Positions 21,616 to 61,200 of a stretch of 64,000 nucleotides of DNA are shown piece after piece. The notes beneath the pieces were generated by a model. The model was given only the letters and a program-made list of their open reading frames with translations, searched no databases and was not told the origin of the DNA. A program made the translations under genes and the position numbers. How positions within the stretch are numbered: position 1 is the first letter of the stretch; every line of letters begins with the position of its first letter. Origin of the DNA: Takakia lepidozioides (Eukaryota; Plantae; Bryophyta); contig CM060732.1 in assembly GCA_030704615.1 (NCBI GenBank), forward strand, positions 29,512,001-29,576,000, written 5' to 3'.

Positions 21616-21709
21616 ACCGCAAGAGCAGTCACGGCTGCACCAGTGTTACGAACGGAGTATGGAACACTTGTCGCTAGGCCCAGCATATATGACCAGGGTG
21701 GCAAAACAA

Positions 21710-26116: not shown

Positions 26117-26137
26117 ACCGTGAGGACACGGCTTTTT

Positions 26138-26151
26138 GAGGGGGGAAGGGG
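26138..26151 (+). promoter_or_regulatory. Polypurine tract of C
   Basis: GAGGGGGGAAGGGG before the 3' LTR. Confidence 0.9.
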
Positions 26152-26154
26152 TAA

Positions 26155-34583: not shown

Positions 34584-34604
34584 TTACCCCTTCCCCCCTC
34601 AAAA

Positions 34605-37600: not shown

Positions 37601-37790
37601 TGTTTCTGCAGAATTGTGGTGCTCTTCACCCTGATTTCCTCCATTCCTCTCACTCTCTTCATCTTAGACTCACAGAACTGCTTTGGCTGTAACAACTGCA
37701 GGAATGCCTGTAGTGCACAAAGCATAAACGTATGGTTGCCGCAGAAAGCTATGGGTAATCTCTTGTAAGCCTGCGGGGCTTGCAAGCATT
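34605..37790 (-). CDS. Extra 3' ORF of D, with ~0.5 kb missing near 36355-36410
   Basis: Collinear with C 22449-26116 except the segment corresponding to ~23830-24370. Confidence 0.7.
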
Positions 37791-38629: not shown

Positions 38630-41600
38630 TTCAATGCAAATCATGCTGCAGGGTTTGTCATGGATACCACTGTACCCCTTCAACTTATTTGCATTGACTC
38701 TTCCCAGCATTTCTTTGTTAATGGTTTGTAACATGGCGTGTTGTTATCATACATCTTTTGTATGACATAAGGTCCTTTCCATGGTGATTTAAGCTTAGAA
38801 GCTTGAATCTTTCCTTTCTTCTGCAACCATAGAACCAAATCCCCCGTCTTAAAAGTCTTTAACTTGCCTTCATCAAACTGTTCCTTTCGCTTCATCTGAA
38901 TTCTGGTCATATTATCAGCTGCATCAGCACGTACTTCTTCCACATGGTATAATTCATGTTTCCTGACCTTGATGGAGTCTTGCAATTCCATTCTTTTTCC
39001 CCACTCCGTTCTCATGGTAGGTAACAGGAATTCCACTGGAAGTAAGGCTTCCATACCATAAACTAATTGGAATGGTGTATACTTAGTGGTGACTTTATAT
39101 GAAGTCCTGTATGACCACAAAGCTGTCAGCAGCTTTGTATCCCAATCCGTTCTGTTTGCATTGACTATCTTAGCCAAGATAGTACATAGTATTTTGTTGG
39201 TAGCCTCTGCCTGCCCATTACCCTGTGGGTAATATGTTGTACTCTTTCTATGCACAATCATAAACTCTTTAGTCAACAACTCAATGGTCTCATTCATGAA
39301 GTGACTTCCTTGATCACTGATAAATTCTAAGGGACATCCAAATCGTGTAAGTATGTTCTCGTACAGGAACCTTGCTGTGGACTTGGCTGTGTTGTCCCTC
39401 AAAGCTTTAGCTTCCACCCACTTTGTAGTATAATCAGTGGCTGTAATTATGTACCTGTTTCGTGTATTCTTGGATGGTGGATTAATTGGTCCAACAAAGT
39501 CTAGTCCCCATTTCTGAAATGGTTCCGTAGGCATTGTAGGATGCAAGGCCATTCTTCCAGATCTCTGCAAAGGTCCTAGCCTCTGACATTCATCACACTT
39601 CTGACAATACTCATGTACATCTTTGAACAAAGTAGGCCACCAGTATCCTGCGAGTAGTATCTTTCTACTGGTAGTCTCTTCTCCAAAATGACCTCCAGCC
39701 ACTCCTTTATGAACTTCCTCCAAGACTTTATTTACTTCATGGTGGTACAAGCATCGTTTTAGTACTCCATCAGGTCCTAACTTATACATTCTGCTTCCTA
39801 CCATAGTATAAGGTAAAGCTTGATAGCAATTCTCTTCCTCTGCTCCTTACCATAACTAGGTGGGCACTGACCATGAGCAAGGTAGTATCTGATTGGCCAC
39901 TGCCAATCTAACCATTCATCTGCACTTCCTTGCACCTCCATTACAAATAACTCGCATCAGGTAACTGATCGTCCACTCCTGTGGCGGCCTCTCCTGTTGT
40001 TAGTCGTGACAAATGATCTGCCACAAGATGCAAACGGCCAGGCTTGTAAATAACCTCGAACTCAAACTCATGCAAGATTATTAACCACCTCGCTATCCTT
40101 CCACTTATCAAAGGTTTGTTCACCAGATATATCAGAGCCTGGTGATCCACATAAACATAAACTTTCTTCCCAATAGGTAATGCCTGAATTTCTTCACTGC
40201 ATAGATCATTGCCAATGCTTCTCTTTCCGTTGTGCTATAGTTCCTCTCAGCACTGTTCATCAACCGGCTAGCATAGTACACAGGTGAATCTATATTCCCT
40301 GTAACATTCTGGGCTAACACCGCTCCCAACGCTTCTCCTGATGCATCGCAGTGAACATGAAATACTACATGCCAGTGAGGGTTAATCAGCACAGGTGTAG
40401 TTGTTACTGACAGTGTAAGTTCCTCAAACGCCTGTTGACATTCAGCTGTCCAGGCAAACACTGCATCTTTCTTCAGAAGCTTGCTCAATGGTGCTGCTAT
40501 TTGTGCATACCTTTTGACAAATCTTCTGTAATAACTGGTTTGCCCAAGGAATCTCCTTAACTCTTAACATTCACTGGTGGTGGAGAGGCTTTAATGGACT
40601 CTGTCTTCCTGGGATCCACAAGAAGTCCCTTCTTACACACAATGTGTCCCAGAAGCACCCCTGAGTTCACACAGAAAGTACACTTCTCTGGATTCAAGCC
40701 CAGACCTCTCATCCTGCATCTGGCCAGGCATAACTCCAATTTATGCAAGTGCTCATTCTTAGAGCTGTACACACTGAAATCATCCAAAAACACCTGCATG
40801 AAATCATCCAGATACTCATGAAAAGATTCACTTATCACTCTCTGAAAGGTCGCTGGTGCATTACAAAGTCCAAAGGGCATGACTTTGTATGCATAAGCCC
40901 CCCAGTCTGTGATGAAAGCTGTTTTCCCTTGGTCTTCTTCTGCCACTTGCACTTGATTAACCACTGAAGCCATCCATGAATGAGTACATCTCATGGCCTG
41001 CCACAGTGTCTAATACTGCTTCTGTGAATGGCAAAGGGAAAGGATCTTTCTTCGTACAAGCATTCAGCTTCTTATAGTTCACACATACTCTTAGTTTGCC
41101 ATTCTTCTTGGGAACTATAACAATGGGTGACAACCAAGTTTGTATACTCTATTGGGTATATAAACTTAGCCTCAGCCAACTTCTTTATCTCTTCTCCAAC
41201 CTTCTGTGCGTAGTTGGGATTCATTCTATACCTCGCCTGCTTGATTGGTACTGACCCTGGTTCCAGTTCAATCTTATGCTGACAGACTTCAGGTGGTATC
41301 CCTTTTAGATCCTCATAGCTCCAAGCAAATACATCTCTGTATTTGATGAACAAGCTTTTAGCTTCTTCGAAGAATTCCGGCTCCAAATCAGCTCCTACTT
41401 TCACCATCCTCGGTTCCTCCTGAGTTCCCACATTTACTTCTCTCACCTGCTCATCAGCTGTGATTGTCCAACCAGTCACCACTTCATCCTGTAAGCTCAC
41501 AGTGGCTGGTTCTTCTAGGATTTCTATTCTCCTCCTTTTCTTCATAGAAATGTGATGGGTAAAGCTGGTTTCCTCTTCAGTTGGTGTTGCTGTCACTACA

Positions 41601-44600
41601 CCACAGCAGATACCTCTCAAACAACTTAGGCTTTCCAGCCGCATCTCTGCAACCTGCTCCCACTCTGGGTGTGCAGCAAATAGGGTAGCTTCCTGCTCCT
41701 CATCCAGTCCTCCCTCCAGTCATACTCTCTGACTCCTCGAGGTCTTCTTGTAGCAGGTAATCTACTAGATTTCTTTGTGGTAATTTGTATCTCGTGCATC
41801 CCATTATGCACAGTTAGTAACTGAGAATTCCAGTCATGGAATACCCTGGCCTGTTTCAGCCACGGACGTCCCAATAATAAGGAGTAAGCCTCCATGACTT
41901 CATCCATTTTTAATACAGTTACTGTGATCATAAAGATCATTTTCTGTATCTGTATCTTAACTCCTCTTTATTAATCCCAATGGCTGTACACTTCTTTGAT
42001 CTGCCATTGTTACTGTAAATGGGGCTGGTTTCATGTTACTTAGACCAAGCTTCTTCCTTAATTGGTCTGTCATGATATTTACTCCAGAACCACCATCTAT
42101 CAGTACATCAGTTAGTTCTGTGCTTCCAATTCTCAATTGGATTACTGGCATAGAATCATCAAAGTCCATGACTGGTTCTCGCCCTTCCGGCTTCACATTA
42201 TAACTGGTCACCTTGCTGTTCAGTCTGTGTTTTCCTGTCTCTTGGGCAATTCGATTGATTGCCTGATACAGCCTGTGCCTACAATAAGGTGCCACAGCTA
42301 ATAGCTGTCCAATGGTAATTTCTGCTTTGGTCTGACATATTACTTCAGCCAAAGTCTCTTCATTACTTTGCATGTCTGCATCTTCTTTTTTTTCCTTTCT
42401 TCCTCACTCTTCTCTCCATCCGAATCAGAGGAATCTGCCACAGGAATATCAGTACTCTTTTGCATTTCCCTTATAGTATCTGCCACTTCCTTGTGCAGTT
42501 CCTTCTCATCTTTCCAAGTCTCTTCATCTTCAGGCATATCATTGCCACTTCCAGTCTCATCTTCTTCCTCTTCTACTGGAGGTATTAGTTTGGCTTTACT
42601 TCTTGTTACTATCATTGTACTTACTTCTGGTACAACACATGGCCTAACCATGTGAGCTGCCACCACTGGGCCCTCATTCACAGGAGCTCTCATCTCATTC
42701 TGGTGTCTTATCCAGAATGAACAGGCTGCCTTGCGATGTCCTGGCTGATTACAATAGTAACATAGCTCTTCACCATTGGGTCCTCGCCCTTGGTCTGTTC
42801 TTGGATTATTTCTATAATCCTGATTCCCGGGCTGGTAATTCCCCTTGGATTACCCTGATAGTTGCCTCTGGAATTTCCTTGGTAATTCCCTCTTGAATTA
42901 CCTCTCCCTTCCATGCCATTGTTATAACCACCAGACCTACCATAGTGGTCCTGATCATTGCTTCTTCTTGGCTGGGGCTGCACCTGATGCACCCTTACTT
43001 GCCTAGGTTCTCTTGCAGCTGTCCTTCTGTTGTAGTAACAATTCTCAGTAGAATGGTTATCCATTTTACAGATAGTACAGTGTTTCTCCTTCATGTGGCA
43101 TTCTGTGGTGGTATGGCCTTCATTCTGGCACTTTGCACACCATACACCCTTCCTCCAATGTGTTGCAGCCTCTGTGGCATACTTCTTCAAGATTTCTTCC
43201 AATTTTTTTCATAGTTATCCCTCTTCAACTTCTCCTTTCTCTTACTCTTTCTTTTTAGTTCTTGCTCTTCTTCTTCATCTGACTCATCCTCAGAGTCCTC
43301 ATCTTCTTTTTCTCTCTCCTGAGCATTCCCAATTGCTCAATTCTGTTCGCAGTTTCAAATGCCTCCTCCACTGTATTATGGGGTAACATATCCACTTTCT
43401 TTTGCAACTCTGGTCTTAGTCCACTCACAAACCAAGTCTTCTGTAAACCGGGCGCTGGTACTGCAGCCAGCTTTTTCATCATCAATTCCATCTTCTCCAT
43501 ATACTCTTCAACAGTTTCATGCTTCTTCTGCTTCAGCTGTTGTAAACTTCCATACACTTCATCCTCAGTTTTACTTGTCCTGAACCTATTTCGAAATGCT
43601 GTATTCAAGCCATTCCAGGTTAGGAAATGATTATCAGGGAATCTTGCATACCATTCACTTGCTTTCTTGATAAGTGAACAAGGAAACAGTCTCATCTTGG
43701 CATCATCGCCATTCTCATTGTTCACTATACACATGTGCTCAAATTGGCTAATGTGTACATCGGGATCCCCTTTTCCTGAATATATTGGAAAGGGTGGTTT
43801 TTGCCCGTGTTGGTTGTAACGCCATCTGTGGCCCTACCTTCTGCCCACTGACAGGTGCTGGCACCCTTGCTGGTGCTGGTCCTTCTGGACCTGTTGTTTT
43901 TTGTGGTGGATCTTCCACCAAGTGGTGGCCCTTGAGCACTCCCTGCTTCTGGCCCCACGATATTCACAGTATTCCCAGCTTCAGTTGCACTACTTCCCAC
44001 ACTCCCTGTCCCCCCAGAGCCAGATCCAGGCAGCCCGCCTGATCCCCCTGAGCCGACACCTTCGTTGGCCTGTGATCCAAGTGCTCCACTTGATCCAGGT
44101 CCAACGGGTTGGGATGTCCTGGTTGTAGTCTCAACCTCAGCTGTTGGGTCTACTTCTTCATATTCTTCCTCTTCCAATTTCTTCTCTCTGTTTTCATCCT
44201 CCAAGTTCTGCCCTTGGGTTTCTTCTTCACTCATGTAACTCAACTGTAATGGTGTTGGAGAGTCTGAACTCTCCGTTGGCTCTGCCACATCCTCTCTCCT
44301 TCTTCATCTTCTGCTTCAGAAACTGGAGTTCCTGCTTTTGGTGTTCCATGCCAACTCTTATCAAAGATTTCTGTCAAGTCTTTTATCCAAGGATGTACCT
44401 CAGATCTTTCACCTCGTGATTGATCTTCTTCCTGTACCAATTCCCTTAATCTTTCTTGCAAAGAAACAGAAGGAGTGGCATCCAACTCTAGTTCTTCCGG
44501 TATAGGTGATGCACTTTTGATCTTGATGGTGTGAGAGGGTCCAGATGATTCCCCTATGTCTATTCCTCTCTCCCAAAGATATGGATAATTAGCTTATAGC

Positions 44601-44652
44601 TTTCTCTTTTTGATGAATATCTTTGTCGTCTAGCTTCTCTTTCATCACTCAT
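38630..44652 (-). CDS. Gag-pol of D (frameshifted in this assembly)
   Basis: Integrase 38680-39804 (374-aa ORF); RNase H ~39941-40488; RT ~40557-41410 with VFLDDF; protease 41626-42373; gag ~42340-44652. Confidence 0.93.
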
Positions 44653-45368
44653 GTCCCATGTCTTTCATTTCTTTTAATGTGGCAATAACCAAAACTCTCT
44701 TCTGTAATATCTCTCGTATATGCCTGGGTTTTTTCAAGCTTCAATGCACCCTTGGCTATACTTGAAGTCTCCGTTACCATATAACCATATGGCAAACAAG
44801 TCTGAAAAGCTGTTCTTGGTGTGAGTTTGATCCACAAAATATCCTTTGGAATCCAATTCTTTACCAGTACAAGCTCTTCATGCATATGAGTATAAACATT
44901 CACCTTTCTTTCTTCCCAGCCTTCAAACTCTACTCGTTTAATGGATAGCAATGCTATCACATAAACCAATGTTGGTAACCAACGTGCTCTTCCTCTACAG
45001 GCTACCTGATAAATCTTTATCACTCCTTTCTCCAGACCCCATTCTGGATCAGCATCATGCACTCGTTTAAGAATATTTTCTTTACATCCGTCTGGCAATT
45101 CCAAGAACCTTTGAAAGAATTGTTTGGACAATCTTTCTTCCTTCGTTCCACAGGGAATTTGATTCACTTCAAATTCTTTAATGGTCCAACCACCATGATC
45201 CCACCAGATGCCTGTCACATCTGGTTGTTCATGTCCCAGGTCCCCAGTATGGTCGCCAAATGTCGCGCGGCTTTTACTCACCCATCCCTTCGCTATCCGA
45301 GGCGGAAACTCCAAGATAGAAGAGTTGGAAATCTCTAAGTACTCAGCCCGCGCAGAACAATCAGTCAT
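44649..45368 (-). CDS. Extra 5' ORF of D
   Basis: Same protein as 14877-15572 until a frameshift near the C-terminus. Confidence 0.55.
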   Translation of the reverse strand: MTDCSARAEYLEISNSSILEFPPRIAKGWVSKSRATFGDHTGDLGHEQPDVTGIWWDHGGWTIKEFEVNQIPCGTKEERLSKQFFQRFLELPDGCKENILKRVHDADPEWGLEKGVIKIYQVACRGRARWLPTLVYVIALLSIKRVEFEGWEERKVNVYTHMHEELVLVKNWIPKDILWIKLTPRTAFQTCLPYGYMVTETSSIAKGALKLEKTQAYTRDITEESFGYCHIKRNERHGT

Positions 45369-46208
45369 GACCTACAGCTAGTGTATCATGGGGGTGTTTC
45401 CTATTTGTTTCCCTTTTCGCATTCATCTTAGCTACCTTACATTGATAATTAAGTATCAGTTTGCTTCATCAATCTATCGGTTTCCTTCCTCATTCAATCC
45501 ACAGCTTCACTCAGATCTCTCTACACAGTGTGATTGTATCGTATAAGTATCAGATTATGATTTATCAGGTATCAGGCCGAAGCCATTATGTCTCTAATCT
45601 GCTCTACAATATCACTACAGCTTTGCATATAACAAGCATCTACTAATCCTCTTTCCTCCTTCATCGTGCTCTCCATCTATCTCCGCTCCCCTGACTCCGA
45701 AGTCCTCCCCGCCCCTTCATTCCCGTTTCTCCCTTTATCCTCCTATCCGCGGTTCTAACCGTTTCCCTCTCTAACCGTCGTATGTGAACTAACATGTTCC
45801 CTTCACAGGTGTTGTTCCCCACAGTCGTTCCCTGTCCTACTCTTCGTTCCCTATTATCGTGACAGCTGTGTCAAGCGTGACTGGCTGTGTTTGGCTGTGT
45901 CGGGCTGTGACTGGCTGTGGCTGTGGGGCTGTGACTGGCTGTGTGGGCTGTGTCTGCTGTGACGACTGTGACGGCTGTGCTGTGTGTTGTGACGGGCTGT
46001 GTGGGCTGTGTGGGCTGTGACGACTGTGACGGGCTGTGTTGGCTGTGTGTGTGACTGTGTGTCGGCTGTGTGGGCTGTGAAAATGTAACCCCCCTCTACA
46101 GTGCGCTGCTGTCACCCCTAAGGCTCCTGTTGGTCTCAGTCTGTGCAAAAATTAAGGGTACCCTACAGATCCCGTATAAGTGTCTAAGTCCCCTACAGTC
46201 CTCTAACA
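45261..46208 (-). repeat. 5' LTR of D
   Basis: Reverse complement of the C LTR, followed by the PBS. Confidence 0.93.
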
Positions 46209-46377
46209 ACCGAGTGCACACTTCCGTCAGCATTCGCGGCCATGGGACAATGACGGTGTTAAATACAAATAACTAGTTTATTCTACACTGCTTGACAGCT
46301 GTCGTGCGCATACATATCGCTACACAACTACATCGCTGTCCAAACCACACCACACATATATGCAGTAGTCTGCCACA
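46209..46377 (-). repeat. Partial 3' LTR of E
   Basis: Begins TGTGGCAGAC just after the G-rich tract; contains AATAAA; cut by the 5' LTR of D. Confidence 0.65.
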
Positions 46378-46624
46378 ATCGCCCCCCTAGCTGGTGGATA
46401 GGTCCCTCTACTCCAGATAGCTACAAGATGTAATAGCCACAGCCGTACTAAGTCCGTCCCTATTGTACTCAAACTCTAAGACCAAGAGGCCGGGTACAAG
46501 AGTAGCCCCATCGTTAGTCGCCGTCTTGCAATCTGTGAACTTGAGCCAGGATCTCGTGTGTTCAAGGTCTCCTAGTAGCTGGCCTTGCTTTCTTGTTAGC
46601 CTTCCATGGTTGTATCCACTCCCA

Positions 46625-46765
46625 CTATCCAATGCAATGTGGACATAACCAATCCCCATGGAACCATCTCAAGAGGTGGAGTCAAGCATCCCATATGCCA
46701 ACCTCTAGAGCATCGATCACACACCAGCATGGTGGCCCTTAGCAGACCCACACAACATGCACCTC
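46625..46765 (-). CDS. PHD finger at the C-terminus of E integrase
   Basis: Bridging small indels gives CMLCGS...TMLVCDRCSRGWHMGCLTPPLEMVP.GDWLCPHCIG*, a canonical C4HC3 PHD. Confidence 0.88.
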
Positions 46766-46799: not shown

Positions 46800-48039
46800 C
46801 CTGCCATCGACATTCGGAAGGTGACATGGCGCACAATTACGCACATGGTCCTTCCAAGTTATGCCATCCCGACCCTCCAAGACCAAGACGCCTGAGGGCA
46901 AACCTCTCGAACCCTCAAAATAACACGTCCTGCAGTCACATCCAAGGTCGTAGGAGCAGTCTGCTGCAGATAGACATAGTCACCAGGGTTGAATCTCCGA
47001 ACCCCAGGACGATAGCCCCCCACCACGTATGGTAGCATACCTCAACGTATCACGGTGTTGTGCAATGGCAAGGTTCTCGAAAGCCATGGGCATGACTTTC
47101 TTGAACAACTCTGCACGCTGCTCACATGCACGTGCCCACACGTCCGGATCGTCAAGGTTAAGAACTGTAGCAGCTTCTCTGCGAATGGATGTAGGCAAAT
47201 CCGGCTCTCGGCCAAAGAGAAGAAAGTATGGTGAGAAGGAGGCAAGTGATGCTTGCTTGCTGAACCTGTAGCCCATGGCTAACCAGGGTAACTGAAGGTC
47301 CCAATCTCCTAGGTGTCCCTTCTGCAAGCCATACTTGCGCAAACCCCTCTTTACTGTCTGAACAACTCTCTCTGCCAAGCCATCGGCCTCAGGATGATCC
47401 CGAGAAGTGGTGCGGTGGTCTATCAAGGCCTTGTCACACAAAGCCTGAAACTCCCCCAAGAACTCTCTCCCTTGGTCCGTGAGTACCTCAGCTGGAGCAC
47501 CGAATCGGCTAAGCACACAATCCAAGAATGCATACGCAGCTCCCTCACTAGCCTTATCAGGCAATGGAACCAATTCAATCCACTTGGAGAAGTGCTCCAC
47601 CATCACCAACACGTACTTGTTGTGGCGCATGGTCAGTGGCAACGGCCCTGCGAAGTCAAGACTCCACCTGTAGCCCAATCCCATGATCGGAAGAGGGCAA
47701 TTGTGGAGTAGGGGCGTTGAATGAAGCACGCACCCTGTCACACACCATGCACCTAGCCACAAATTGTTGCACCTCTGTGTGCATACCACGCCACCAATAC
47801 TGCCCCTGCAGTAGACTATGAGTGCGTCGCACCCCAAAATGCCCCAACTCCTCATGGGCATGCCGCACTAACCGTGCCCGCTGTGTTGGGTGAGGCACAA
47901 TCCTCACTCGACCATCCTCCCACACTCGGAGCAGGTGTGTCCCCTCCCACTTGAACCTCTTGGCTCGTTGTAGGATCCGATCCCTCTCCTTGGCAGTCAC
48001 AGTGGCTGCCGTGTCTCCAGTGCGGAGGTAGTCCAACAC
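46800..48039 (-). CDS. Integrase of E
   Basis: HEELGHFG...CMVC; WSLDFAGP...TDQGREF...DGLAER; SPYFLLFG. Confidence 0.93.
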
Positions 48040-48199: not shown

Positions 48200-49650
48200 T
48201 CTCACCATGCCACCGAGCTCCAGTGTCATCCTGCTGGCTCGTGCATGGATTGCGACTCAACCCATCTGCATTGCGATTGACCAAACCCGGTCGATGCACA
48301 ACCTGAAAGTCATACTCTTGAAGGATGAGTGCCCACCGTGCAAGCTTCCCCGTAAGCTTGTCTGACTCCATCAACCTTGAGTGGTTGGTGATCCGTGACA
48401 AGGGTGAAGAGATTGCCGTATAGATAGCACCTGAAGTGTGCCACGGCCCACACTGCAGCTAAGCATTCTCCCTCATATGAGCTATACTTAGACTCTGCAG
48501 CGTTGTTCGAGCGGCTAGCATAAGCCACTACGAACTCTCTTCCCTCATCATCCACCTGTGTGAGCACCGCTCCAAGCCCCAGCATGCTCCAATCTGTATG
48601 CAGCTGAAAAGGACGCCCCCTGATAGGTCGTCTCAAGATGGGCGCCGAGGTCAACCTCGCCTTGAGCTCTTGAAAAGCTTGTTCTTGCTCATCTTCCCAC
48701 TGCCACTCCTCCTGGTCCACCTTGGTCAGCTTGGTTAGAGCCTTTGCAATGGCACTAAATCCCTTAACAAACCGTCTATAATAGTTTGCTAACCCCATGA
48801 AAGCTCGAACTCGGCTCACATCCGTGGGGCGTGGAACCTGTGCAATGGACTCTACCTTAGTCTGCTGTACCCCCAATCCTCCAGGATATATCATGTGACC
48901 CAGATACTCAATCTGGTTGTGGAAAAACTTGCACTTTCCCGGATGTAACTTCAATCCGTGCCCTCAAGCGCTCAAATACCCCTGAAGGTGTCTCTCATGC
49001 TCCTCCACCGTAGCACTAAAGATGATGATGTCATCTATGTAGCACCGAGCAAACTCCACCCCTGCTAGAATCCTGTCCATGACTCTTTGAAACTCAGCGG
49101 AGCGTTTTAAGCCCAAATGGTAAGAACCGCCACTGGTATAGGCAATCCTTCCCGTGCTCATTGATCCCCCAGAATGCCGTCTTTTGCTTATCCGCCTCCT
49201 TGATCGGCAACTGGTGATATCCGGATCGTAAATCCAACGTGCTAAAGACCTTGGCATGCCCAATGGCATCAAAGATCTCCTCTGGTGTCGGCATGGCATA
49301 CCTATCGGACTTGGTCTGACGATTTACAGGCCGGTAATCACCGCACATACGTCTCTCCGTCCAATTGCCATAGACATCCTTCTTGGCTGGCATCACTGTG
49401 GCTGAAGCATACTCTCCCCCAGATAGCTCCACCAAACCAGCCTCCCAAAGGTCCTGAGTCTCATCTGAATCAAGGAGGACCTCTCTATGTCATTGTATCT
49501 ATAGGGTCTCCGAAAGATTGGCGTAATCAGTAGCCAATTCAATGCGAATCTCTTGAGCCCTTCAGTGCTCTTAAGTCCTTCAAACTGAAGGCAAGCAGTT
49601 CCTGTAAGCCCTCAAGAACCGCCGTATACGTTGTCTCTCTCCTCCGGTGA
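48200..49650 (-). CDS. RT and RNase H of E
   Basis: RRMCGDYRPVN, DLRSGYHQ, LPFGLK, CYIDDIIIFS; HTDWS...YSSYEGECLA...TDHQPL...NADGLSR. Confidence 0.93.
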
Positions 49651-50039
49651 CTATAGGTCCAACATCAGGCTCCCAGTTGTCCTCCGTGACTGCAACCTTG
49701 AGTCCAGCAGGCTTAGAGGTAGAAGACGCGTCCCGTGGTTGCTATGCTGCAACCTCTTGAGCAGTGACCACTGCCTCCTCTGTCAGTGACAATGTCTCAT
49801 CCTGCCCCCATCATCCCATCCTTGAGGACCTCCTCATCCGAGAAAAATCCCCAAGCTGATCCATCACCGCCGCCTTGGCTGCCAACTCCTTTTGAACCTC
49901 GAGCACCTCCCACGTGTGCCATGGATGCGCCCTGCACCTCGTGGTCCTTACCTGCTCGCCCCCACTCGCTGCCTGTACCGTCTCGGTAGGCAGGGAGACC
50001 ATGAAGGGAAGTGTACTCCGTACTCTGCGTTGCTCAGCC

Positions 50040-50990
50040 ATAGCCAAGCTGATAATCCAGGTCAAGCAATTGAGATCCATTGCTTGCCCCAACACCTGAC
50101 GACGTGATGCCTCAGAAAGAGATGGCACCGCCGTGGTACCTGTGGTAAAACCCCCGCCCGCTCGCGCTCGTCAGGCATTGGGCTCCACTAATTGTTGCAA
50201 CTGGCTATCCCACAAGAGCCAGGTCCACCATCCCAAAAAGCATGGGATCCTGGGAAGCTGAGCAGTGTAGGTAATGCTACTCGTGGTTGACCCACCCCGT
50301 TGACCACTGCCAAAGGCGAACAGTCATCGTGTCTCACATGTTGAGACTGCCTCCCTGTGTCCAAAATGCTATCCACTATGAGGTGTGCTGGCCGCTGCGC
50401 CCCATCAAATGAACGCTTGAGCAGTGCGGGTGGCATCAAGTTAGTCCACCATAGCCGTGGACGATGAGCCCATGACCCCCTGCAGCTGCATCCAGCAACA
50501 CTGCTGACCCAAGCCACGACCGGACTTGATGCACACCGGCTATCACCCTGGCCCGAGAATCACCCATCGGTGGCACATTCTCCAAGATGTATGCTGGAGA
50601 TACAGCTTGATGAAGCTGCAAGTGGCGCAAAATCCGTACCATCTCCCAAAACAGACCCGTCCTCGAGTCTCGCAATCGATTGCCATGCCCGGCTGATGAA
50701 TGCCCTTGGCAGGGCCAACCTGCCACTACCAGATCAATGGAGCCAACCCGCTCCAAATCCTGCGCCCCCAGCAACGAAATGTCTGCTGGCAAGGCTTGTT
50801 GGTATCCACGAACTGCAGACACTGGCAACAAATCAGGGTACTGCTGTACCACTGCAACATGGCGCAGTGAGATGCGTCGTGCAGTCTCATCCCTCTCCAC
50901 ATACAGGTAACGTCGAACTCGTACACCTGCCTGTAGCACTGCAGCCAATCCAGTGCTGATCCCGCCAAACAAGTCTAGAAGGCATATGCC
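50040..50990 (-). CDS. C5 DNA cytosine methyltransferase domain (DNMT3-like) inside the E polyprotein
   Basis: Motif I LLDLFGGISTG; II YVERD; III ADI; IV IDLVVAGWPCQG; VI YILENV; VIII AHRPRLWWTNL; IX EPNA.ERERA.GF; X RRQVLGQAMD; linear I-X order; small frameshifts. Confidence 0.92.
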
Positions 50991-51124
50991 TTCATCCGGG
51001 CATTGCCACACAAGAGGTGTGGTGTCCAATGGTGACAACTGAGGTGGTCCTGGTGCAATCCCCACACACTCTCCTCTTCTCCTGACGGTACGAAGGCCTC
51101 TACCCAGGCTTGTTTACCCGTCCA

Positions 51125-51780
51125 TCAGCAACCTGCTGCAAATCCTTGCTCGTACCCCAATGGAGTGTGAGCAACCATGGCAGGTAACTCCGCCGTACCA
51201 TGCATGTCATCCTGCTCTGCTGGAGGTGGCACATCCTCTGCATGGGCATTGCCTTCCAGCAACTCTCCAGGCCAACTAACTGTAGCTGTAAAGGCGGCTA
51301 GTGTTGGCATCTTGCCCCGCTGGGCAGCCGCAATACCCCCAATGAATGTCACAGGGAGCTGTGCACGACGACCATCCCCTGACTGCCATCCAGGCCTGTA
51401 GGATGTTGACTCCTCCCAAAAGTCCAGGGTGAAGCCCATGGGATATAACATTGCCCCACCAACAAGGACATCCTAAGAGACCGCGTCTGTCACAATGGCC
51501 TTGGCTCGCATCACTGAGCCATCGTAGGATGATCTGGTTGTAGTCCAATGGCCAACTCACGCCGTGTCATGCCCCGAGCCTGCTCTGATCCTCCCAAAGA
51601 TGTATGTATCTGGAAAGGACAAGGCTCCATATCCGCCTCCATGAGGCCCAAACCTGCAATAGCAGCTCTGCCCAACATCAGTGGCTGAGCTCCCGAGTCC
51701 AACAAGACCCGCAGTGGCCGGTACTTCTTGTCTGCCGGTCCACTCAAAGTGAAAATGCCTCCTGGTTGTCTAACAAGACA
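51125..51780 (-). CDS. Aspartic protease of E
   Basis: RVLLDSGAQPLMLG catalytic motif; downstream DVLVGGAMLY. Confidence 0.8.
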
Positions 51781-52165
51781 ACTCCAGGTGTCACCATGGC
51801 GCGCTCAAAAGGCTGGCCTAGCTGGCAGCTCCGTCAACTGGCAGCTGCAGCTTGCCATGGCGCAGCCGTGCAGTCTTGACCCTCAAATCCAGGATCCCTC
51901 TGCCACTACACCTTCCAGTAGCTCCGCAGAAGATGAAGTGACCTCCCCACTCTCGCAGAGTGTTGCTGCTAGTCTGAACACTGCAGCTGGTCTTACCCCC
52001 GGCGTCGCAATCATGGTTGCCGAGAACAGTGGGGCTTGACACACAGAGGTGGCTGCCCCCAATAACACACCGGCTGCACTAGCCTTGGTAGCAGGTGTCA
52101 GTGCTGCACGTGTAGCTCTCCCCAATGGCATAGTAACCTCCGCCTCGGTAATAGTCAGGTGAGAA

Positions 52166-53778
52166 CTAGGTGCCATGGATGGCGTCGACACAGTCTCCGC
52201 CAATGTGAATGACTGAGGAAGCCTTGCCTGACGGCTTGCCTCCCCACGCTGTGGATCCCTCCACCTCTGCACCTCGTGGCTCAGGAACTCGTGCTGCTCC
52301 TCGAGTCACGGCTGCAGCAGACTCCACCTGCACTAGTGGTAGTGCTGCTCCGCACATGAATCCCATGCCTCCCATATCTCCTCCCTCAGGCGCAGGAGGT
52401 GGACCATCCCGCCTGGGAGCCGGTACCGCCTGAGCTGTAGCCATGGCAGCGAGCCTCCGCTCTAGCTGCTGAAGCCGGTTGGCCATGCCTTGGTCAACAC
52501 CCTGACCTCCGCGTCCTTGGCCATGTTGATTTTGCCCTTGGCCTGCCCTCGTGCCCGACCACCTCGTCCTCTCTGGGCTGGTCCACCTCGCCCCCGGCCA
52601 CCATTGTTCCCTTGGAACTGGCCTGGGCGCAACTCAGGATGCAAGTCATAACACTGGGCATCTCCATGCCCATACTTGCCACAATGCCCACACTGCAACT
52701 GTGCAGGCTGTGCTTGTGCCGGCCTTTTGCCACTCTATGGGCAATCTCTCTTGACATGGGGTCCTCCACATGTCCAACATATCACCCCTGGTTGCTGTTG
52801 GCCTGCAAAAGATGCTATTGGCCTCTGCACCTGAGGTCCCCTGTAAGCTCCATGGAACTTGGGTTGGAAACCTTGCCCCCTGACCACGCTGTTGGGCAGT
52901 CCCTTGTGCCTGTGGGTTGGCAGCTGCGCCTCGTGCAGGCATGTCTTTGCCAAATCCAATGGTAACAACTCGCTCCTCCACCATGTTGAGCTCAATCCGC
53001 TCAGCCAGCAGAAACACATCTGCTAATGTGGGTTGGGCTGCTTGTAACAATATTGCATCTTGCACCCTTCTCTTGAGCTCCTTGTCCAGAATTCCATACC
53101 AAAACTGGATTGCCTGAGCTTCAGTAACCCCTTGGGTCACACTTATCAAGCGCCTCATACGAGTGTAGGCCTCTCGCAAGCTCACTGGGTTTGCGCTGAA
53201 GTCTTGCAAACTTTGCAGCTTCTCTGTCCGTACACCTTGGTAGTTCCTCCGCAACTCCTAGAAGAACTCCACCACCGGGTTGAATCTAGGCACATGTGTT
53301 GTAGTCGTGGAGTAGTAGCACCTTTTGAACTGGTACCACCTGCAGAAGTACCGGCACTACTTGTTCCACTACTAGTGCTGGCAGTGGGAGATATTGGTAC
53401 TGATGCAGCTACTGGTCGCATTGTGCCTCGAGTAATGGAGACGTAGTCAGGTGACCAATACATCCTCCACTCCTCAATCTCTGCTTCATGTCCTTGCCTG
53501 AACTCGTGGTAATCGTCCATAGGCGGGCCTTCCAAATGCTGGAACAGTCCCTTCCACGCCATGAATGGGGTGAACAGCTGTGGATTGCGCATCTGCTGCA
53601 AATCACACCAGCTGTCGAACTCTTGGATAATGTCATCCAGCTCAATTGTGCCCACAGCTCCAGAGTACCTACGAGGCCCCTTGGTAGCTCCATACATCTC
53701 CTCCATGTCGTCCCACCAATGGCGAATGAAACTGCATACCTGTTGATGAAGCCTCCGAGTCTGTGTTTGACTCTGCAC
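52166..53778 (-). CDS. Gag of E (frameshifted)
   Basis: RRYSGAVG...FDSWCD N-terminal region; SLREAYTRM...FWYGILD; knuckles CWTCGGPHVKRDC and CGHCGKYGHGDAQC. Confidence 0.75.
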
Positions 53779-54369
53779 AGTTGAGGGTGGAGGTGAAGGT
53801 GGTCTGAACGAAACCCTCGTCTGGTGAACCCACTCTCACTGCTACTGCCTGCAGCCGTACTCCCCTCAGAACCCCTGGGTAACTCCGTGATGACGCTCAC
53901 AATGTGTACCTCCCCCACGTGACACTATAAGGCTCTAGTACTAATTCTAATAGTGACACGGTAGGCACCTGTTGCAGTTTAAGGGTCATATCCCAGTGGC
54001 TCAGGGCACCTGCACCTGCATCCACCGCAAGAACTCCTATGGTTGGCTGGTCATCAACCCAGTCTCACCATAGAAGAACACTGGTGGTCTTGCTGGTCAT
54101 CACTCCAGCCTCACCACCGACAGCATACTCTAGGAATCAAATCCGCCAATCCCTATGAAAAGCAAGCGCCCACACAAAACCAACATGGCGCACAGTCAAG
54201 CATGCAGGTGTTGGGGGGATCCAAACACAAGAAATCAAAACATCAACACCCCCACACCAAAATCCATCTGCAATGCTGATCCTGCAGAATATCCCAGCCC
54301 AAAACCCCGGACTGACTGGAGAGGCTTTGGCACTACAAGTACAAGGTGTACAGAGATGGAGGGGAAGAA

Positions 54370-55286
54370 TAGCGCGCTTTTTACTCACCCATCCCTTCGC
54401 TATTCGAGGCGGAAACTCCAAGATTGAAGAGTTGGAAATCTCTAAGTACTCAGCCCGCGCAGAACAATCAGTCATGACCTACAGCTAGTGTATCATGGGG
54501 GTGTTTCCTATTTGTTTCCCTTTGGTATTCATGTTAACTATCTTACCATTGATAATTAAGTATCAGTTTGCTTTATCAATCTATTGGATTCCATCAACTC
54601 ATCCATTCATTCCACAGCTTCACTCAGATCTCTCTACACAGTGTGATTGTATCGTAAAATCCGATTATGATTTATCAGGTATCAGGCCGAAGCCATTGTG
54701 TCTCTAATCTGCTCTACAATTACAGCCTTGCATATATCAAGCATCTACTCATCATCTCTCTATCTTCACTTCCGTTCTTCATCTCTGCCCGATCCCCTCT
54801 CCCATGACCAGAAGTCCTCCTCCGAATGATCCCCTCATTTCCCCGTTTTCTCCCTTTATCTCCTATCCGCGTTCTAACCGTTTCCCTCACTAACCGTCGT
54901 CTGTGAACTAACATGTTCCCTTCGCAGGTGTTGTTCCCCACAGTCGTTCCCTGTCCTACTCTTCGTTCCCTATGATCGTGACAGCTGTGTCAAGCTGTGA
55001 CTGGCTGTGTGAAACTGTGACTGGCTGTGTGTTTGGCTGTGTGTGCTGCTGTGTGGCTGTGTGGCTGTGTGTGACGACTGTGACGGCTGTGTGGGCTGTG
55101 CGACTGTGTGTGTGGCTGTGTGGCTGTGACGACTGTGACGGCTGTGACGGGCTGTGACCTGTGTAACCCCCCTCTACAGTGCGCTGCTGTCACCCCTAAG
55201 GCTCCTGTTGGTCTCAGTCTGTGCAAAAATTAAGGGTACCCTACAGATCCCGTATAAGTGTCTAAGTCCCCGACAGTCCTCTAACA
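54370..55286 (-). repeat. 3' LTR of F (more diverged variant; terminal CA missing)
   Basis: Homologous to the C/D LTRs with visible substitutions; ends ...AAAAAGCGCGCT instead of ...GCCGCGCGACA. Confidence 0.88.
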
Positions 55287-58200
55287 TTACCCCTTCCCCC
55301 CTCAAAAAGCCGTGTCCTCACGGTTTACTGATTTCGACTAGCAAACCTTTGTGAGTGAGCACCTTTTGACGTTGAGTTTCGTGGCGGACTGTGTGTACGA
55401 GCCGAGGTCTGTCTCTGTTGACGGATGGTTGATCACTACCTGGATAAGTGAGGCCCTCTGGAGGCTGATATCGAGGTAATCTTTCCGGCATAGGAGACCC
55501 CGTCGCTTCTTCTCTTCCCATCTGAATTGCATAGTCTTCTCCCATGTCAAAAGAATTCGGTGAAGAAACAGTTGTATCAGAATCCTCATCGCCTCTCAGG
55601 TGTTTTAATTTTCGAACTTTTTGTGGAATCATCTGGGGCATACAATGCTGTCCTACCATGTCTGGAAGTTTGTATTTTACAACTGGTGTAACCGCTGAAC
55701 AGCAAAATTGGTGTAGACACTGAGCTCCTTGTCTGTCCAGGTGAGTGGGGTACCAATTACTGGTGCAGCGTGCAAGTATTCCATGCCACATGTCCCTTAT
55801 AGAAAATGTCATCAATCCGAATTTCTGTGTTGACAAATGGTTGCAGGCTGCTTGAAACCATGAACGAATTTGAGAATCCTTTTGCATCATAACTTTTGGG
55901 TCATATAGGTACATATGAGGTGGCACCGAAGGTAATACCCAATGATCTCCACTGGAATAACTCAAAAATGTTTGCATCTTTTGTTGCTCAATGTGGTAAC
56001 GTACCAGAAAACAAGCAGCGTAGTATAACCCGCACCCCATGACAATACTTGCTATCTCCTTGGTCTTGGTATAAATGAGTCCATGTACAACCTGGAAAGC
56101 AATCAATTCCCTCAACATGGTACCTGCCTCGTGCCAGTATTGTGCAAAGTGATGATCTTCAATATGTCGATTGTTCGGAAGAACTTTAGTCCTAGTTGCC
56201 ACTGGCAGCCAAATACGCATGATTTGGTAGTAATGTGCGAATGACTGCGGAGGACTAAATTCTTTCCAAGCCAAATCCAACATGATGGGAATTTGGTTGA
56301 AGGGCATAATCATAGCCCTACTGTACTCCCTTGCAGCTGGAGTTTTAGGTGGGTTAAAAGCGCATTGCCCCCCATACCTCCGGCTGTGGTGGCTGTGGTG
56401 TGGTTGTAGTAACCACAGGTTCAGCTACTGGTACAGTGACTTGTTGTGGTGGTGGTGGTACTGGCTCTTGTATCATTGGCATCTCCTGCACCTCCTGTGA
56501 AGACTGAAAAGCCAAAGTTCTGGCTTGTAAATAAGAAGCCATTAGCTGTTCCTGAGGGATATAGACTCTTTGGTCGATGTTTGAAGTGAGGTTCCACTTG
56601 AGTCTGGAGTCCGTCTACATCCTCTTGTAACTCTGCTATCCTACTATAGACATTGTCTATAGTAGTTGTGGCAATGTTCTGCACCTGCAGCCTGAGCTCA
56701 TTCATCTCGCTTTGGGTGAGCTTCCGTGGTGCTTTGCCCTCTACTGGCCCTTGTGCTAACCAGACCTGCATAAGGCTGTTATCCACCAAGTTGCTTGTGG
56801 TTCCCCTGAGAGTTTGCTCCTCTCTTAGCTTGTACAATTCCAACTGCTGTTGTAAAGCCTCCATGCGCTTCGCCTGAGGTTCAACCAATTGCGCATAAGC
56901 AGCAAGTAGATTATTGGCTTCCTTCCAAGCCTTGTTATGACCGCGATTTCATTTCTATTGGCCATGATGGTTTGTTGCAACTCCACGATGTGCTTCTCTT
57001 GATCAGCTTCAATCTGCCTGTATTGCTTGAAAGTATCTTCATTGCGACAGATTGTATTCTTCATATCGACAATGAGCTTCATTTGCTCAACATTCTCTTC
57101 TTCTGCCTTCGTACATTTTTCCGCTTGACTGTTTATTTCTTTTGTTGATTGGTCAAGCATAGTTGTAAATGTAGCACATTGTATCGCCATCCTGTTATGC
57201 ACTGTCTGCAACTCCGTATGTAGTGCATTCAGTTCTTGCAACTTGCTTTCATGCTGCACCTGCATTTGGTATAGCTGTTGCTTATGTGCTTCGTGCAACT
57301 GGTCTTGCGCGAGGCCTGCCTCAATCAATTGTTCTTGGCCAATTGCAAAGCCATTTCTGTATTCCCAAGTCCTGCTTCATCTTGAGAGTGACCTCTTCAT
57401 CGACCTTGTTTGCACACTCAGTGGCAAGTCGAGCCTCAAACTCCTTCCTGAGTTCCTCTTTCAAGGCTGTCAATTGGGTAATTGGAACATGGGATTTGAC
57501 ATAAGTCCCCAACAAATTAAGTGTCCTGCCTATGGAACTCATCAGCATTGCCTGTTGAGGGTCATCATGGTGAGGTTGCTGCTGTTCCTCCTGATCTTCA
57601 ACAGTGTGATGTCTCACTAACCATTCAGGCCATTGTCCCACCGGATTTTCTTCCTGAACTACTTCATCTATCACCGGTGCTACAGTGTCATGACCTTCCG
57701 CCTGTGGTACCTCCGACACAGGTGTGTGTATTATATGCACCTCAGGATTTCCCTTGGGCAACTGTTGCACCTCTGGGATTTCTGTCTCCTTGACCAGACC
57801 AGAATATTCATAGAGAAGGTCCCCCTTCTCTATTTCTGCCACTATCTGTTCTGTAGTTGGAATATCTAACCCTTCACTTTCCAAATCAATTATTTCGGTT
57901 GAGCTGCATGGATAACTTGTGACCTTGTGACAAGTCGTTCAGGTGGCTGTGATGGTTGTGATGCAGAAGTAACTTCCTCCTCCCTCTCTGAAGGTCCTGC
58001 TTCCAGTAATAGCATTTCTCTGTGCTGCTGTGCCCCTTCCTGGCCATGAGCTTGGGAAACATTATCATGCGGAATCCGTGAAGCCAGTGGATCCGCCACT
58101 ACAGTCTTTCCCCGTCTCTGCCTCTTAGTCTCGGGTTGTGCTGCTAGTCCACCCTCACTGTGTGAAGAGCCTTGCTCTTCCATTGCAGTTGTTTCTGGCT

Positions 58201-61200
58201 CAAACACTCCCATTTCCTTTCTTTCTTGCGCATTAAGTATGCCAGAATCAAGGATTATTTGAGCAATGATTGGGCCAGACACTATGATAGGAGACTTTGC
58301 GGTAGTACCTTGTAATCTTTTCATCTCCTCTACCAGTGCGTTGTACATTATGTCCGCCCATTGTACCTCTTGTCCCTTCAGGCCTTTGAGTATTTCCTCC
58401 GTGAAGGATCTGCTCAAATATGTTGGTTCTGTTTCATGGCAATCAGAACGTTCAATACCTGGCCTACCTCTTTTACCCCTGGGTACACAGCCTTGGTACA
58501 AGCATAACCCTGAGTTTTAAAGAAACTCCCTTCTTGGAATAAGTCCCCTATTTGCAGTCTTGCCCTGTGTTCCTCCACATGCACCTGACCTGCTGGCAAT
58601 CGAAACAATTGCTGGAGGTATAGGGAGTAATCATTAATTCAACTCCCTTCACCGTTGTTGTTCCTGTCCTTGGCTCAAAGTTCTGCAAAAATTGTAACAT
58701 GTACTGTCTATGGTGTAGTGTCCAATCTAGGCTTTGCAATCCTTGCAATCTCAGCTCCTCCAGTATCTGTATCGCCTGTGGGGTAGCAATCGTTTGTTTC
58801 TGCAGAATTGTGGTGCTCTTCACCCTGATTTCCTCCATTCCTCTCTCACTCTCTTCATTTTAGACTCACAGAACTGTTTTGGCTGTAACAACTGCAGGAA
58901 TGCCTGTAGTGCACAAAGCATAAACGTATGGTTGCCGCAGAAAGCTATGGGTAATTTCTTGTAAGCCTGCGGGGCTTGCAAGCATCGCTCAAGAGAAAAG
59001 CTCCGCTCTGTCCTTTCGTGTCTATGCCACTGCGTAAGTAATATTGCGAGCGTATAGTCTGTTAGTTCCTCCATAGTTTCCAAGTATAGCATTGATGGTC
59101 TGTCCTGTCGAGACGCCCGTTACTCAGAACGACGCCGCCTCTTGCGCTCAATTTCCCTCCATTTTCTTGATCCTTCTCTGGTTTTCTATTGGCTGTATCC
59201 GCTGTGACTGGATTTTAGATTTTATCTTCTTTAGTGGACTTTCCCTGTTGGATAGTCCACTAGGATCACACATGTGACAAGAATTCGGCTTTTCTGTACT
59301 TGCCGTTCGTTCCGTTTCCCTTTTTCCGTATCATTAATGGGCCCGCCTTTCATCCCTTTTGACGGCCGTTCTTGTCCTCTTTCTTTTTGACACCTGTCCT
59401 TGCACTTCATTCTCGGCTGTGTGTCGCGCCCTGACCTCCACGTGTCTATTTTTAAAGTAATTTCCGTTTCTTCTTCCTTCAGCCATTTTCCTGAAGTTAT
59501 TATGTGTCCACTTGTCACTGATTCTATGGATCGTGTAACTTTAGTAGGCTGTGTTGAGCTGTGACAGGCTGTGTCATACTGTGTTACGGATAGGCTGTGA
59601 TGCACTGTGGTAAGCTGTGATAGGCTGTGTGTGGTAGGTTGTGATAGGCTGTGACTGTGTTGTGATGGCTGTGTGTGGGTGATGGGCTGTGATAGGCTGT
59701 GTGCTGTGAATCCTGTGATAGGTGCCATAGGCTGTGTCGTTTGCCCACCCTGGTCATATATGCTGGGCCTAGCGACAAGTGTTCCATACTCCGTTCGTAA
59801 CACTGGTGCAGCCCGTGACTGCTCTTGCGGTTCAACATGCAAATCATGCTGCAGGGGTTTGTCATGGATACCACTGTACCCCTTCAACTTATTTGCATTG
59901 ACTCTTCCCAGCATTTCTTTGTTAATGGTTTGTAACATGGCGGTGTTGTTATCATACATCTTTTGTATGACATAAGTCCTTTCCATGGTGATTTAAGCTT
60001 AGAAGCTTGAATCTTTCCTTTCTTCTGCAACCATAACCCAAATCCCCCGTCTTAAAAGTCTTTAACTTGCCTTCATCAAACTGTTCCTTTCGCTTCATCT
60101 GAATTCTGGTCATATTATCAGCTGCATCAGCACGTACTTCTTCCACATGGTATAATTCATGTTTCCTGACCTTGATGGAGTCTTGCAATTCCATTCTTTT
60201 TCCCCACTCCGTTCTCATGGTAGGTAACAGGAATTCCACTGGAAGTAAGGCTTCCATACCATAAACTAATTGGAATGGTGTATACTTAGTGGTGACTTTA
60301 TATGAAGTCCTGTATGACCACAAAGCTGTCAGCAGCTTTGTATCCCAATCCGTTCTGTTTGCATTGACTATCTTAGCCAAGATAGTACATAGTATTTTGT
60401 TGGTAGCCTCTGCCTGCCCATTACCCTGTGGGTAATATGTTGTACTCTTTCTATGCACAATCATAAACTCTTTTAGTCAACAACTCAATGGTCTCATTCA
60501 TGAAGTGACTTCCTTGATCACTGATAAATTCTAAGGGACAGCCAAATCGTGTAAGTATGTTCTCGTACAGGAACCTTGCTGTGGACTTGGCTGTGTTGTC
60601 CCTCAAGCTTTAGCTTCCACCCCACCCACTTTGTAGTATAATCAGTGGCTGTAATTATGTACCTGTTTCGTGTATTCTTGGATGGTGGGTTAATTGGTCC
60701 AACAAAGTCTAGTCCCCATTTCTGAAATGGTTCCGTAGGCATTGTAGGATGCAAGGCCATCCTTCCAGATCTCTGCAAAGGTCCTAGCCTCTGACATTCA
60801 TCACACTTCTGACAATACTCGTGTACATCTTTGAACAAAGTAGGCCACCAGTATCCTGCGAGTAGTATCTTTCTACTGGTAGTCTCTTCTCCAAAATGAC
60901 CTCCAGCCACTCCTTTATGAACTTCCGCCAAACTTTATTTACTTCATGGTGGTACAAGCATCGTTTTAGTACTCCATCAGGTCCTAACTTATACATTCTG
61001 CTTCCTACCATAGTATAAGGTAAAGCTTTGATAGCGATTCTCTTCCTCTGCTCCTTACCATAACTAGGTGGGCACTGACCATGAGCAAGGTAGTATCTGA
61101 TTGGCCACTGCCAATCTAACCATTCATCTGCACTTCCTTGCACCTCCATTACAAATAAACTCGCATCAGGTAACTGATCGTCCACTCCTGTGGCGGCCTC

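Follow-up and report, generated by a model that had tools for sequence, protein, structure and literature searches.

A Ty3/Gypsy Retrotransposon Family of Mosses, Liverworts and Green Algae with a DNMT3-Like Methyltransferase ahead of a Conserved Stop Codon

The Locus

The window analysed here is one stretch of 64 kb, and between about 46209 and 54371, on its minus strand, lies a decayed Ty3/Gypsy copy, referred to as element E, in which a DNMT3-like C5 cytosine methyltransferase (DNMT) domain is placed between the protease (PR) and the reverse transcriptase (RT). The order of domains in the family of element E is gag-PR-DNMT-stop-RT-RH-IN-PHD, where RH, IN and PHD stand for RNase H, integrase and a PHD finger (Table 1). 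A first-pass annotation of the same sequence had described the methyltransferase and its position; the conserved in-frame stop codon, the PHD finger and the rearranged termini are observations that go beyond it.

Table 1. Features of element E and of the sequences that adjoin it, in window positions.
Feature	Position	Strand	Basis
3′ LTR of another element A copy, in place of the 5′ repeat of element E (context only)	54372..55286	-	
gag with two zinc-knuckle motifs, broken	52620..53835	-	tblastn to Marchantia P0005; motif positions; zf-CCHC only E=0.08
Aspartic protease (LLDSGA 51705-51688), broken	51350..51804	-	Pfam Asp_protease_2 E=0.007, below cut-off; tblastn
DNMT3-like C5 cytosine methyltransferase, motifs I-X linear, three frame breaks	50033..50993	-	PF00145; motifs; profile; model of a relative
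Conserved in-frame amber stop, TAG-CAA-CCA; predicted readthrough site between Gag-PR-DNMT and RT-RH-IN-PHD	49736..49744	-	Codon alignment with relatives
Reverse transcriptase and RNase H, broken	48313..49489	-	RVT_1, RT_RNaseH
DDE integrase (zinc-binding and core), broken	46983..47916	-	Integrase_H2C2, rve
PHD finger at end of integrase ORF, frame-broken	46634..46761	-	tblastn to PHD of P0042, 60%
Polypurine tract (PPT), motif as in distant relatives	46378..46393	-	Comparison with relatives
Repeat B, begins after PPT and ends CA	46300..46377	-	End agrees with B ends of relatives
B-to-A junction CA-NN-TG, short palindrome; predicted integrase attachment site	46293..46306	-	Junction common to relatives
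Start of repeat A2 (begins TG), cut by LTR of the other Gypsy element	46209..46297	-	Comparison with relatives
5′ LTR of unrelated Gypsy element A, truncating the 3′ end of element E (context only)	45261..46208	-	

The window copy is dead. Its methyltransferase frame changes near 50480, 50220 and 50150, and many further frame changes and stops are found in gag, protease, reverse transcriptase and integrase. It is flanked on both sides by LTRs of a young Gypsy family, A, of which the window holds three long copies; a matching 5-bp target duplication is present for one A copy and absent for the copy that adjoins element E, so this stretch has been rearranged, with the loss from element E of the 5′ end and the greater part of the last repeat. 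Within the 64-kb window there is no second copy of its repeat B or A, and no tRNA gene.

Element A is a 12.5-kb Gypsy element without a DNMT, present as three copies that are ~97% identical (14028-26938, 33669-46208 and 54372-64000), with extra long open reading frames after the integrase that have no Pfam match (e.g., 55318-56424, 368 aa). An older plus-strand Gypsy element, B (12100-14027, 26939-27748 and 33172-33668), is split by two element A insertions and by a CACTA-type insert of 5.4 kb (27749-33171). The inverted ends of this insert match, its 3-bp duplication nearly so; it lies inside another element's integrase and contains PPR-like gene fragments (about 30380-30495 and 31740-32030) as well as tandem repeats. 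These fragments had been read as pointing to a land-plant host; they lie inside the transposon and none of the three pieces has a Pfam match, which makes them weak evidence of the host. The window also contains a tandem array of ~1.4 kb with a 53-bp period (1087-2500) and an open frame of 476 aa without a Pfam match (2843-4270).

The Methyltransferase Domain

All motifs of the domain lie in linear order on the minus strand and, in the C5-MTase numbering, are I LDLFGGI (50978-50958), II YLYVE (50909-50895), III ADI (50786), IV GWPCQ (50720-50706), VI ILENV (50588-50574), VIII AHRPRLWWTN (50469-50440), IX ERERA (50169-50155) and X LGQAMD (50092-50075). This order and the location between protease and reverse transcriptase, first proposed from the letters alone, were borne out by six-frame translation and Pfam domains; PF00145, named beforehand as a check, matched the frame 50439-51113 with E=8e-13 (48.9 bits, against a cut-off of 22). 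A profile built from the family has its best match in DNMT3A (3e-17), followed by the best DRM-type chain (8e-8) and HhaI (2e-6), and DNMT2 ranks far below DNMT3 (1e-5 to 3e-4).

Folding the domain from a single sequence gave a pLDDT of 33, and an alignment-based fold was used instead. The model of the domain of a relative, L002, from a 56-row alignment has a pLDDT of 96.6 and a TM score of 0.74 against DNMT3A; DNMT3A-DNA complexes are its best matches, and every top match listed by Foldseek is a DNMT3. No exception to the catalytic Cys or the ENV Glu occurs among the 56 aligned domains, a count that is partly biased since the rows were picked by profile score, and the SAM-loop Gly, catalytic Cys, ENV Glu and motif VIII Arg are conserved across 32-67% identity.

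The fold and linear motif order are those of the moss host enzyme PpDNMT3b and of animal DNMT3A/B (PMC6453930, as far as its account extends). DUF3444 marks the host DNMT3 of non-flowering plants, PpDNMT3b being an example in the same source, and it had no match on P0005, P0001, P0018, P0031, P0038 or the first ORF of L076. The element's domain thus differs from host DNMT3 in having no DUF3444, PWWP or ADD, in lying within a retrotransposon ORF, and in being only ~21% identical to DNMT3A. A host plant DNMT3 gene was ruled out on the absence of the C-terminal DUF3444, and a DRM was ruled out because motifs I-X are linear, without circular permutation. Judged by its motifs, profile ranking and modelled fold, the domain of element E is an unpermuted DNMT3-like C5 methyltransferase, much as had been suggested from the motifs.

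Spread and Relationships of the Family

With the methyltransferase frame of the window as query, 47 relatives were found at up to 76% identity; proteins of Sphagnum and Calypogeia are among them, as are many gene models of Marchantia polymorpha. In metagenomes, 159 of 211 candidate loci could be confirmed, and the 80 that were kept, many of them one insertion assembled twice, read gag-PR-DNMT-RT-RH-IN-PHD as far as each contig extends. Among these loci, the copies called peat-moss-type here are named for L007, which, compared by eye, hardly differs from P0008, a protein labelled Sphagnum. At E<1e-30, a profile search yielded 393 clusters (50% identity). All 30 bins of element E are covered by contigs of the public sequencing run that matches it best, and an independent contig of 5,009 nt, from another study, bridges the PHD to the DNMT. 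The Marchantia models Mp_4g09160, Mp_8g17980, Mp_8g15430 and Mp_6g11220 are Gag-PR-DNMT ORFs of this family, and one of the four bears the label DNA cytosine methyltransferase in its source.

Two layouts can be distinguished. The PR-DNMT-RT layout of element E is also that of Marchantia, Calypogeia, Sphagnum and Closterium proteins and of the Klebsormidium nitens protein KFL_013780020 (P0167), which shows the PR-DNMT order. The other layout, RT-RH-DNMT-IN-PHD, characterises a large sister group that makes up about half of the profile-search clusters (e.g., P0070, P0071, P0261 and P0284); its named members are from Haematococcus lacustris, and no paper describing such elements was found. A related DNMT also lies ahead of the RT in P0086, which has DIRS-like features and no integrase match and is perhaps a further class of element carrying this domain. 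Phage methylases (17 loci on viral contigs) are only distantly similar, at 29-46% over short stretches, and were set aside.

The trees comprise a FastTree DNMT tree of 174 rows and quick SH-aLRT trees of 48 (DNMT) and 34 (RT) hand-picked rows, so deep nodes are weak. The window DNMT falls in a nine-row clade with Marchantia, Calypogeia and peat-moss-type copies (SH-aLRT 100, 48-row tree), and its RT in a matching clade apart from Closterium (SH-aLRT 99, 34-row tree), groupings that uphold the earlier suggestion of a land-plant-type host on firmer ground than the PPR fragments; a non-seed land plant is the likely host. The two layouts separate in the 174-row DNMT tree (0.97) and in the RT tree (95 and 83), the latter having two outgroups on long branches and no K. 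nitens RT. P0167, filtered out of the 174-row tree, was added to the 48-row tree, where the K. nitens rows join the group with the second layout and P0167 does not come out as sister of the bryophyte clade, with deep nodes below 95; no host DNMT3 or DRM sequence was among those that the searches returned. Overall, element E is a copy of an old and widespread Ty3/Gypsy family of the green lineage, found in mosses, liverworts and green algae, and the methyltransferase is almost certainly a trait of the family as a whole.

Selection and CpG Content

Between the uninterrupted close copies L075 and L076 (dS 0.26), the dN/dS of the methyltransferase is 0.12, and between subfamilies, the window included, it is 0.10-0.19, at dS values of 1.5-2.8 that are near saturation (two comparisons being saturated). 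The domain is less constrained than the RT of the same pair, at 0.12 vs 0.04, the latter over only 90 codons. Dead peat-moss-type copies give 0.53-0.86 among themselves, as expected after insertion. By these ratios the DNMT of the family is under purifying selection; together with the relatives that carry the domain and the retained catalytic residues, they bear out the earlier expectation that other copies would have it with dN/dS below 1.

A footprint of self-methylation was also looked for as CpG or CHG depletion, and no signal specific to element E was seen against its window neighbours. Its CpG observed/expected ratio is 0.50, while the DNMT-less neighbours A, C and the CACTA-like insert range over 0.24-0.50 (element A itself being very low, 0.24-0.32) and element B, at 1.00, has none of its neighbours' depletion; element E is thus not below most elements that lack the enzyme.

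A Conserved Stop between Methyltransferase and Reverse Transcriptase

An open frame continuous with the RT had been anticipated, and this is where the family departs from expectation: the frame is indeed the same on both sides, but a conserved stop codon splits the methyltransferase from the RT. In L076, a Gag-PR-DNMT stretch of 1359 aa and an RT-RH-IN-PHD stretch of 1047 aa share one frame and are split only by TAG-CAG-TTA. Among the 54 sequences that contain both sides, the frame is kept in 40, and in 39 of these the stop is at the matching place, including L002 and the window, where the TAG is at 49744-49742. In the DNA alignment the position reads TAG in 42, TAA in 19 and a sense codon in one (62 alignable of 81 searched, with some insertions present twice), and all 15 of the proteins P0048-P0062 end 66-183 aa past the DNMT, without RT. 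P0247 is continuous from DNMT to RT, and so are some deeper-branching relatives (P0242 and P0063), which makes it likely that the stop is derived.

Readthrough of the type known from TMV follows the consensus UAG then CAR-YYA. This context fits the window, L002, L075 and L076, and most peat-moss-type copies, with CAA-CCC, have it only in part. In plants, a C directly after UAG is needed for TMV-type readthrough, and UAG followed by C gave 6-32% readthrough in the TMV context, according to the portion of the literature represented by PMC2754532; the consensus given there is CAA-UYA, from which the CAA-CCA of the window departs. A conserved hairpin after the stop was looked for and not seen in the folds of five sequences, which differ from one another. 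Taken together, the conserved stop and the readthrough of UAG-C in plants suggest that the methyltransferase is likely made at the level of Gag, one with every Gag, and that Pol is likely made by readthrough, with a fraction of them. Splicing or reinitiation could be other routes to Pol. The position of the methyltransferase ahead of the stop, joined to Gag and protease, favours a role inside the particle.

Termini, Priming and Route of Insertion

The window retains only the 3′ junction of element E, and what follows on priming and on paired ends comes from its relatives. There, a repeat A of ~338 bp stands first, beginning with TG, and a repeat B of ~115 bp comes after the polypurine tract and terminates in CA. 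In none of 24 5′ ends does B precede A, and the ends of the elements take the form A...B or A...B-A-B. Of 26 loci with B, eight continue as B-NN-A, 13 with the polypurine tract stop at B, and five are internally deleted. The complete A...B-A-B form is seen in L024/L054, L041, L071 and L067 (its A1 outside the sequence), and the B-to-A part of it in the window and L076. The spacer of the B-to-A junction is always 2 nt (L010, L024, L041, L054, L067, L071 and L076). The A-to-B joint varies, being direct in L024/L054, L071 and L067, having extra bases in L041, and retaining 10 nt of the priming site in L014/L023. A1/A2 and B1/B2 are equally diverged (90-95%, three loci). In 11 relatives with both ends, a 4-bp target duplication is exact in eight (7/10 distinct insertions), matches at 3/4 bases in two and at 2/4 in one; such duplications accompany both A...B and A...B-A-B forms. 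The integrase is a DDE enzyme of the rve type, the ends are TG...CA, and there is no tyrosine recombinase in the relatives; the DIRS/Ngaro class was ruled out on the integrase and the 4-bp duplication. In two loci a reversed B lies upstream of gag where A is expected (L012:6235-6351 and L020:6245-6361).

Directly after A1 is a stretch of 10-17 nt complementary to a region 26 nt past the TATA box (9 of 18 loci, the transcript start being predicted), and none of 300 shuffles reached 17 nt. The distant L076 has an unrelated 16-nt complementary pair at the same TATA+26 offset (0/200 shuffles), and no tRNA-type primer site follows A1 in the relatives. By its sequence and position this is a self-priming signature as in Tf1 and Tcn1. 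The polypurine tract and the self-priming site together define an ordinary LTR, B-NN-A, yet the inserted ends fall in the middle of that LTR, at CA-NN-TG, and since B is placed behind A, two cDNA ends must be joined.

The simplest reading of these termini is that integration would proceed by the opening of a 2-LTR circle, or of a head-to-tail dimer, at the mid-LTR CA-NN-TG. Self-priming would yield a normal cDNA with B-A LTRs, whose ends would be joined into a 2-LTR circle; the integrase would open this circle at the palindromic mid-LTR site, giving A...B-A-B. One-LTR circles would give A...B copies that are dead ends, and only copies from 2-LTR circles (or dimers) would keep what a new round needs. 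The A...B-A-B arrangement is, however, the same as that of DIRS elements (PMC5890265, where described), and it may have arisen without a circle, through template switches of the DIRS/Ngaro kind or through two linear cDNAs being joined end to end in tandem, an origin to which we give substantial weight, if something short of an even chance. Similarly, the A...B copies could well, though we would not bet on it, be later deletions between the two B repeats, which are only ~450 bp apart, and a head-to-tail dimer yields the same A-to-B joint as a 2-LTR circle. What speaks against such an origin is the combination of a DDE integrase, TG...CA ends and 4-bp duplications without any tyrosine recombinase, and the fact that the A-to-B joint is variable while the B-to-A spacer is constant at 2 nt; a cut at the mid-LTR site is needed by any route. 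In retroviruses, integration at the circle junction was proposed in 1984 and later rejected, as recounted in PMC11054761.

What the Methyltransferase May Do

At the end of the integrase ORF, the PHD finger matches PF00628 with E=2.6e-10 in the uninterrupted L076, and its best solved relatives are CHD4, PHF12, PHF21A, KAT6A, DPF3, KDM5, UHRF1, BAZ2 and AIRE. PHD fingers of the CHD4, PHF21A, KDM5, UHRF1, BAZ2 and AIRE type are readers of unmodified H3 tails.

The explanation that we favour, with some reserve, is that a conserved and selected DNMT is produced in large amounts as the last part of a Gag-protease-DNMT product and methylates the new DNA of the element before insertion. The element RNA would prime itself as Tf1 does; leaky readthrough of the stop would supply RT-RH-IN-PHD, so that the methyltransferase would be packaged at near-Gag numbers; the integrase would cut CA-NN-TG in the middle of the LTR; and the PHD would read unmodified H3 tails, perhaps steering insertion away from active promoters. 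Methylation of the element's own cDNA, argued here from domain order and conservation, is on balance the probable activity, and its likely purpose would be that the new copy arrives pre-marked like host heterochromatin, or that the free cDNA is protected. A broader proposal, which we put forward tentatively and do not expect to hold in every part, combines these features: from algae to mosses and liverworts, a lineage with a DDE integrase would integrate via DNA circles, with a Gag-level DNMT3 methylating the long-lived circle and the PHD picking the target chromatin.

The enzyme might instead act on chromosomal DNA, at the new insertion site or at the element's own loci after integration, and so limit transposition or spread silencing. 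DNMT3-type enzymes do act on chromatin, the moss host DNMT3b methylates heterochromatin de novo according to the account in PMC6453930, the PHD would recruit the complex to nucleosomes, and self-restraint is named as an option in the discussion of such elements in PMC5890265. We nevertheless consider this unlikely, given that the methyltransferase is joined to Gag-PR ahead of the stop rather than to integrase-PHD, which points to the particle, and that it has no DUF3444 of the host plant DNMT3. A role in nucleic-acid binding or RNA methylation, as a chaperone or packaging aid, would suit the Gag-level stoichiometry, the inactivity of the Klebsormidium enzyme in yeast and the lack of a CpG footprint, but it is hard to square with the retention, across divergent copies, of the four motif residues named above (Gly, Cys, Glu and Arg) and with the low rank of DNMT2, and we think it improbable. 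Taken alone, the window might suggest a host DNMT3 fragment captured just once, or a chimera of the assembly, in neutral decay: the copy is full of breaks, and the LTRs on either side come from another element, with target duplications that fail to match. However, the domain has the same position in proteins of liverworts, mosses and algae, it is under purifying selection and has neither intron nor DUF3444, and an independent contig bridges DNMT to PHD; the 47 relatives with the domain, the domain order of the metagenome loci and the dN/dS values refute this explanation, to which we assign practically no probability.

Relation to Known Elements

The closest described element is KnitGypsy-Dnmt3 of K. 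nitens, a Gypsy element with a DNMT3-like domain reported by de Mendoza et al. in 2018 (PMC5890265). Klebsormidium had been cited at the outset as a precedent for the concept, and the precedent is real, but the likeness goes further than the concept: the K. nitens protein P0167, found by the same profile search as the other relatives, is zinc knuckle-PR-DNMT and so has the same PR-DNMT order, and the published description of KnitGypsy-Dnmt3 includes an intronless, unpermuted DNMT3-like domain in the Gypsy polyprotein, purifying selection, and DIRS-like repeats (A-coding-B-A-B) as in the relatives of element E. In broad terms the host lineage is shared as well. Element E differs in that its host is likely a land plant and that the stop is conserved between DNMT and RT, where the authors state a single ORF for both; a PHD, self-priming, a 4-bp target duplication and the mid-LTR CA-NN-TG are unmentioned in the published text on KnitGypsy-Dnmt3 as far as it was consulted. 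Because the single-ORF feature is absent and the placement of the K. nitens sequences hangs on weak deep nodes, element E is likened to KnitGypsy-Dnmt3 and not counted as a member. In yeast, no methylation was obtained with the Klebsormidium Gypsy enzyme, a result called inconclusive by its authors. DIRS-borne DNMT3 domains, among them those of SymbioDIRS-Dnmt3, carried out de novo CG methylation there (PMC5890265, in the experiments reported). SymbioDIRS-Dnmt3 and SymbioLINE-Dnmt are likewise retroelements with a C5 methyltransferase, but belong to other element classes or DNMT clades in that paper. Its table of 96 genomes gives nine DNMT genes for Physcomitrella and has no Marchantia row.

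Other elements share single features with element E. The EpiLTRs of Cymbomonas and Euglena (bioRxiv 10.64898/2026.05.21.726589) also pair methyltransferases with a chromatin reader, but as described there their DNMT is sister to DNMT4 and comes with a DAM and a chromodomain; the wording of that preprint is 'streptophytes (Gypsy-DNMT3)', land plants not being named in the statement. Gypsy-7a_cRei of Chlamydomonas and other PHD-bearing algal Gypsy elements have a PHD in Gag-Pol and biased intergenic insertion, but ordinary paired LTRs, and no methyltransferase is listed in their description (bioRxiv 10.1101/2022.06.16.496473). Tf1/Sushi and Tcn1 elements, like the relatives of element E, have a priming site complementary to their own transcript start and no tRNA primer, but normal LTRs and chromodomains in the account of Neumann et al. 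2019 (PMC6317226); that survey, as its methods are given, relied on LTR-FINDER, a program dependent on paired LTRs, and would likely have missed elements with split repeats. The earlier impression that no such land-plant element had been characterised held, in that no paper was found by a search conducted mostly outside subscription journals, Repbase and theses.

Significance

Methyltransferase-carrying Gypsy elements are extended here from one alga to a large family of the green lineage that includes the laboratory model Marchantia, in which the role of an element-borne DNMT, a question raised in 2018, becomes testable. The family also serves as a warning that many bryophyte gene models called 'DNA methyltransferase' are transposon ORFs. 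The conserved stop leads to a concrete prediction on enzyme dosage, and the permuted ends suggest a route of integration thought to be unused by retroviral-type integrases, judging from the treatment in PMC11054761. If integration does proceed by the opening of a circle, the family would show in nature the circle-junction route once proposed and rejected for retroviruses.
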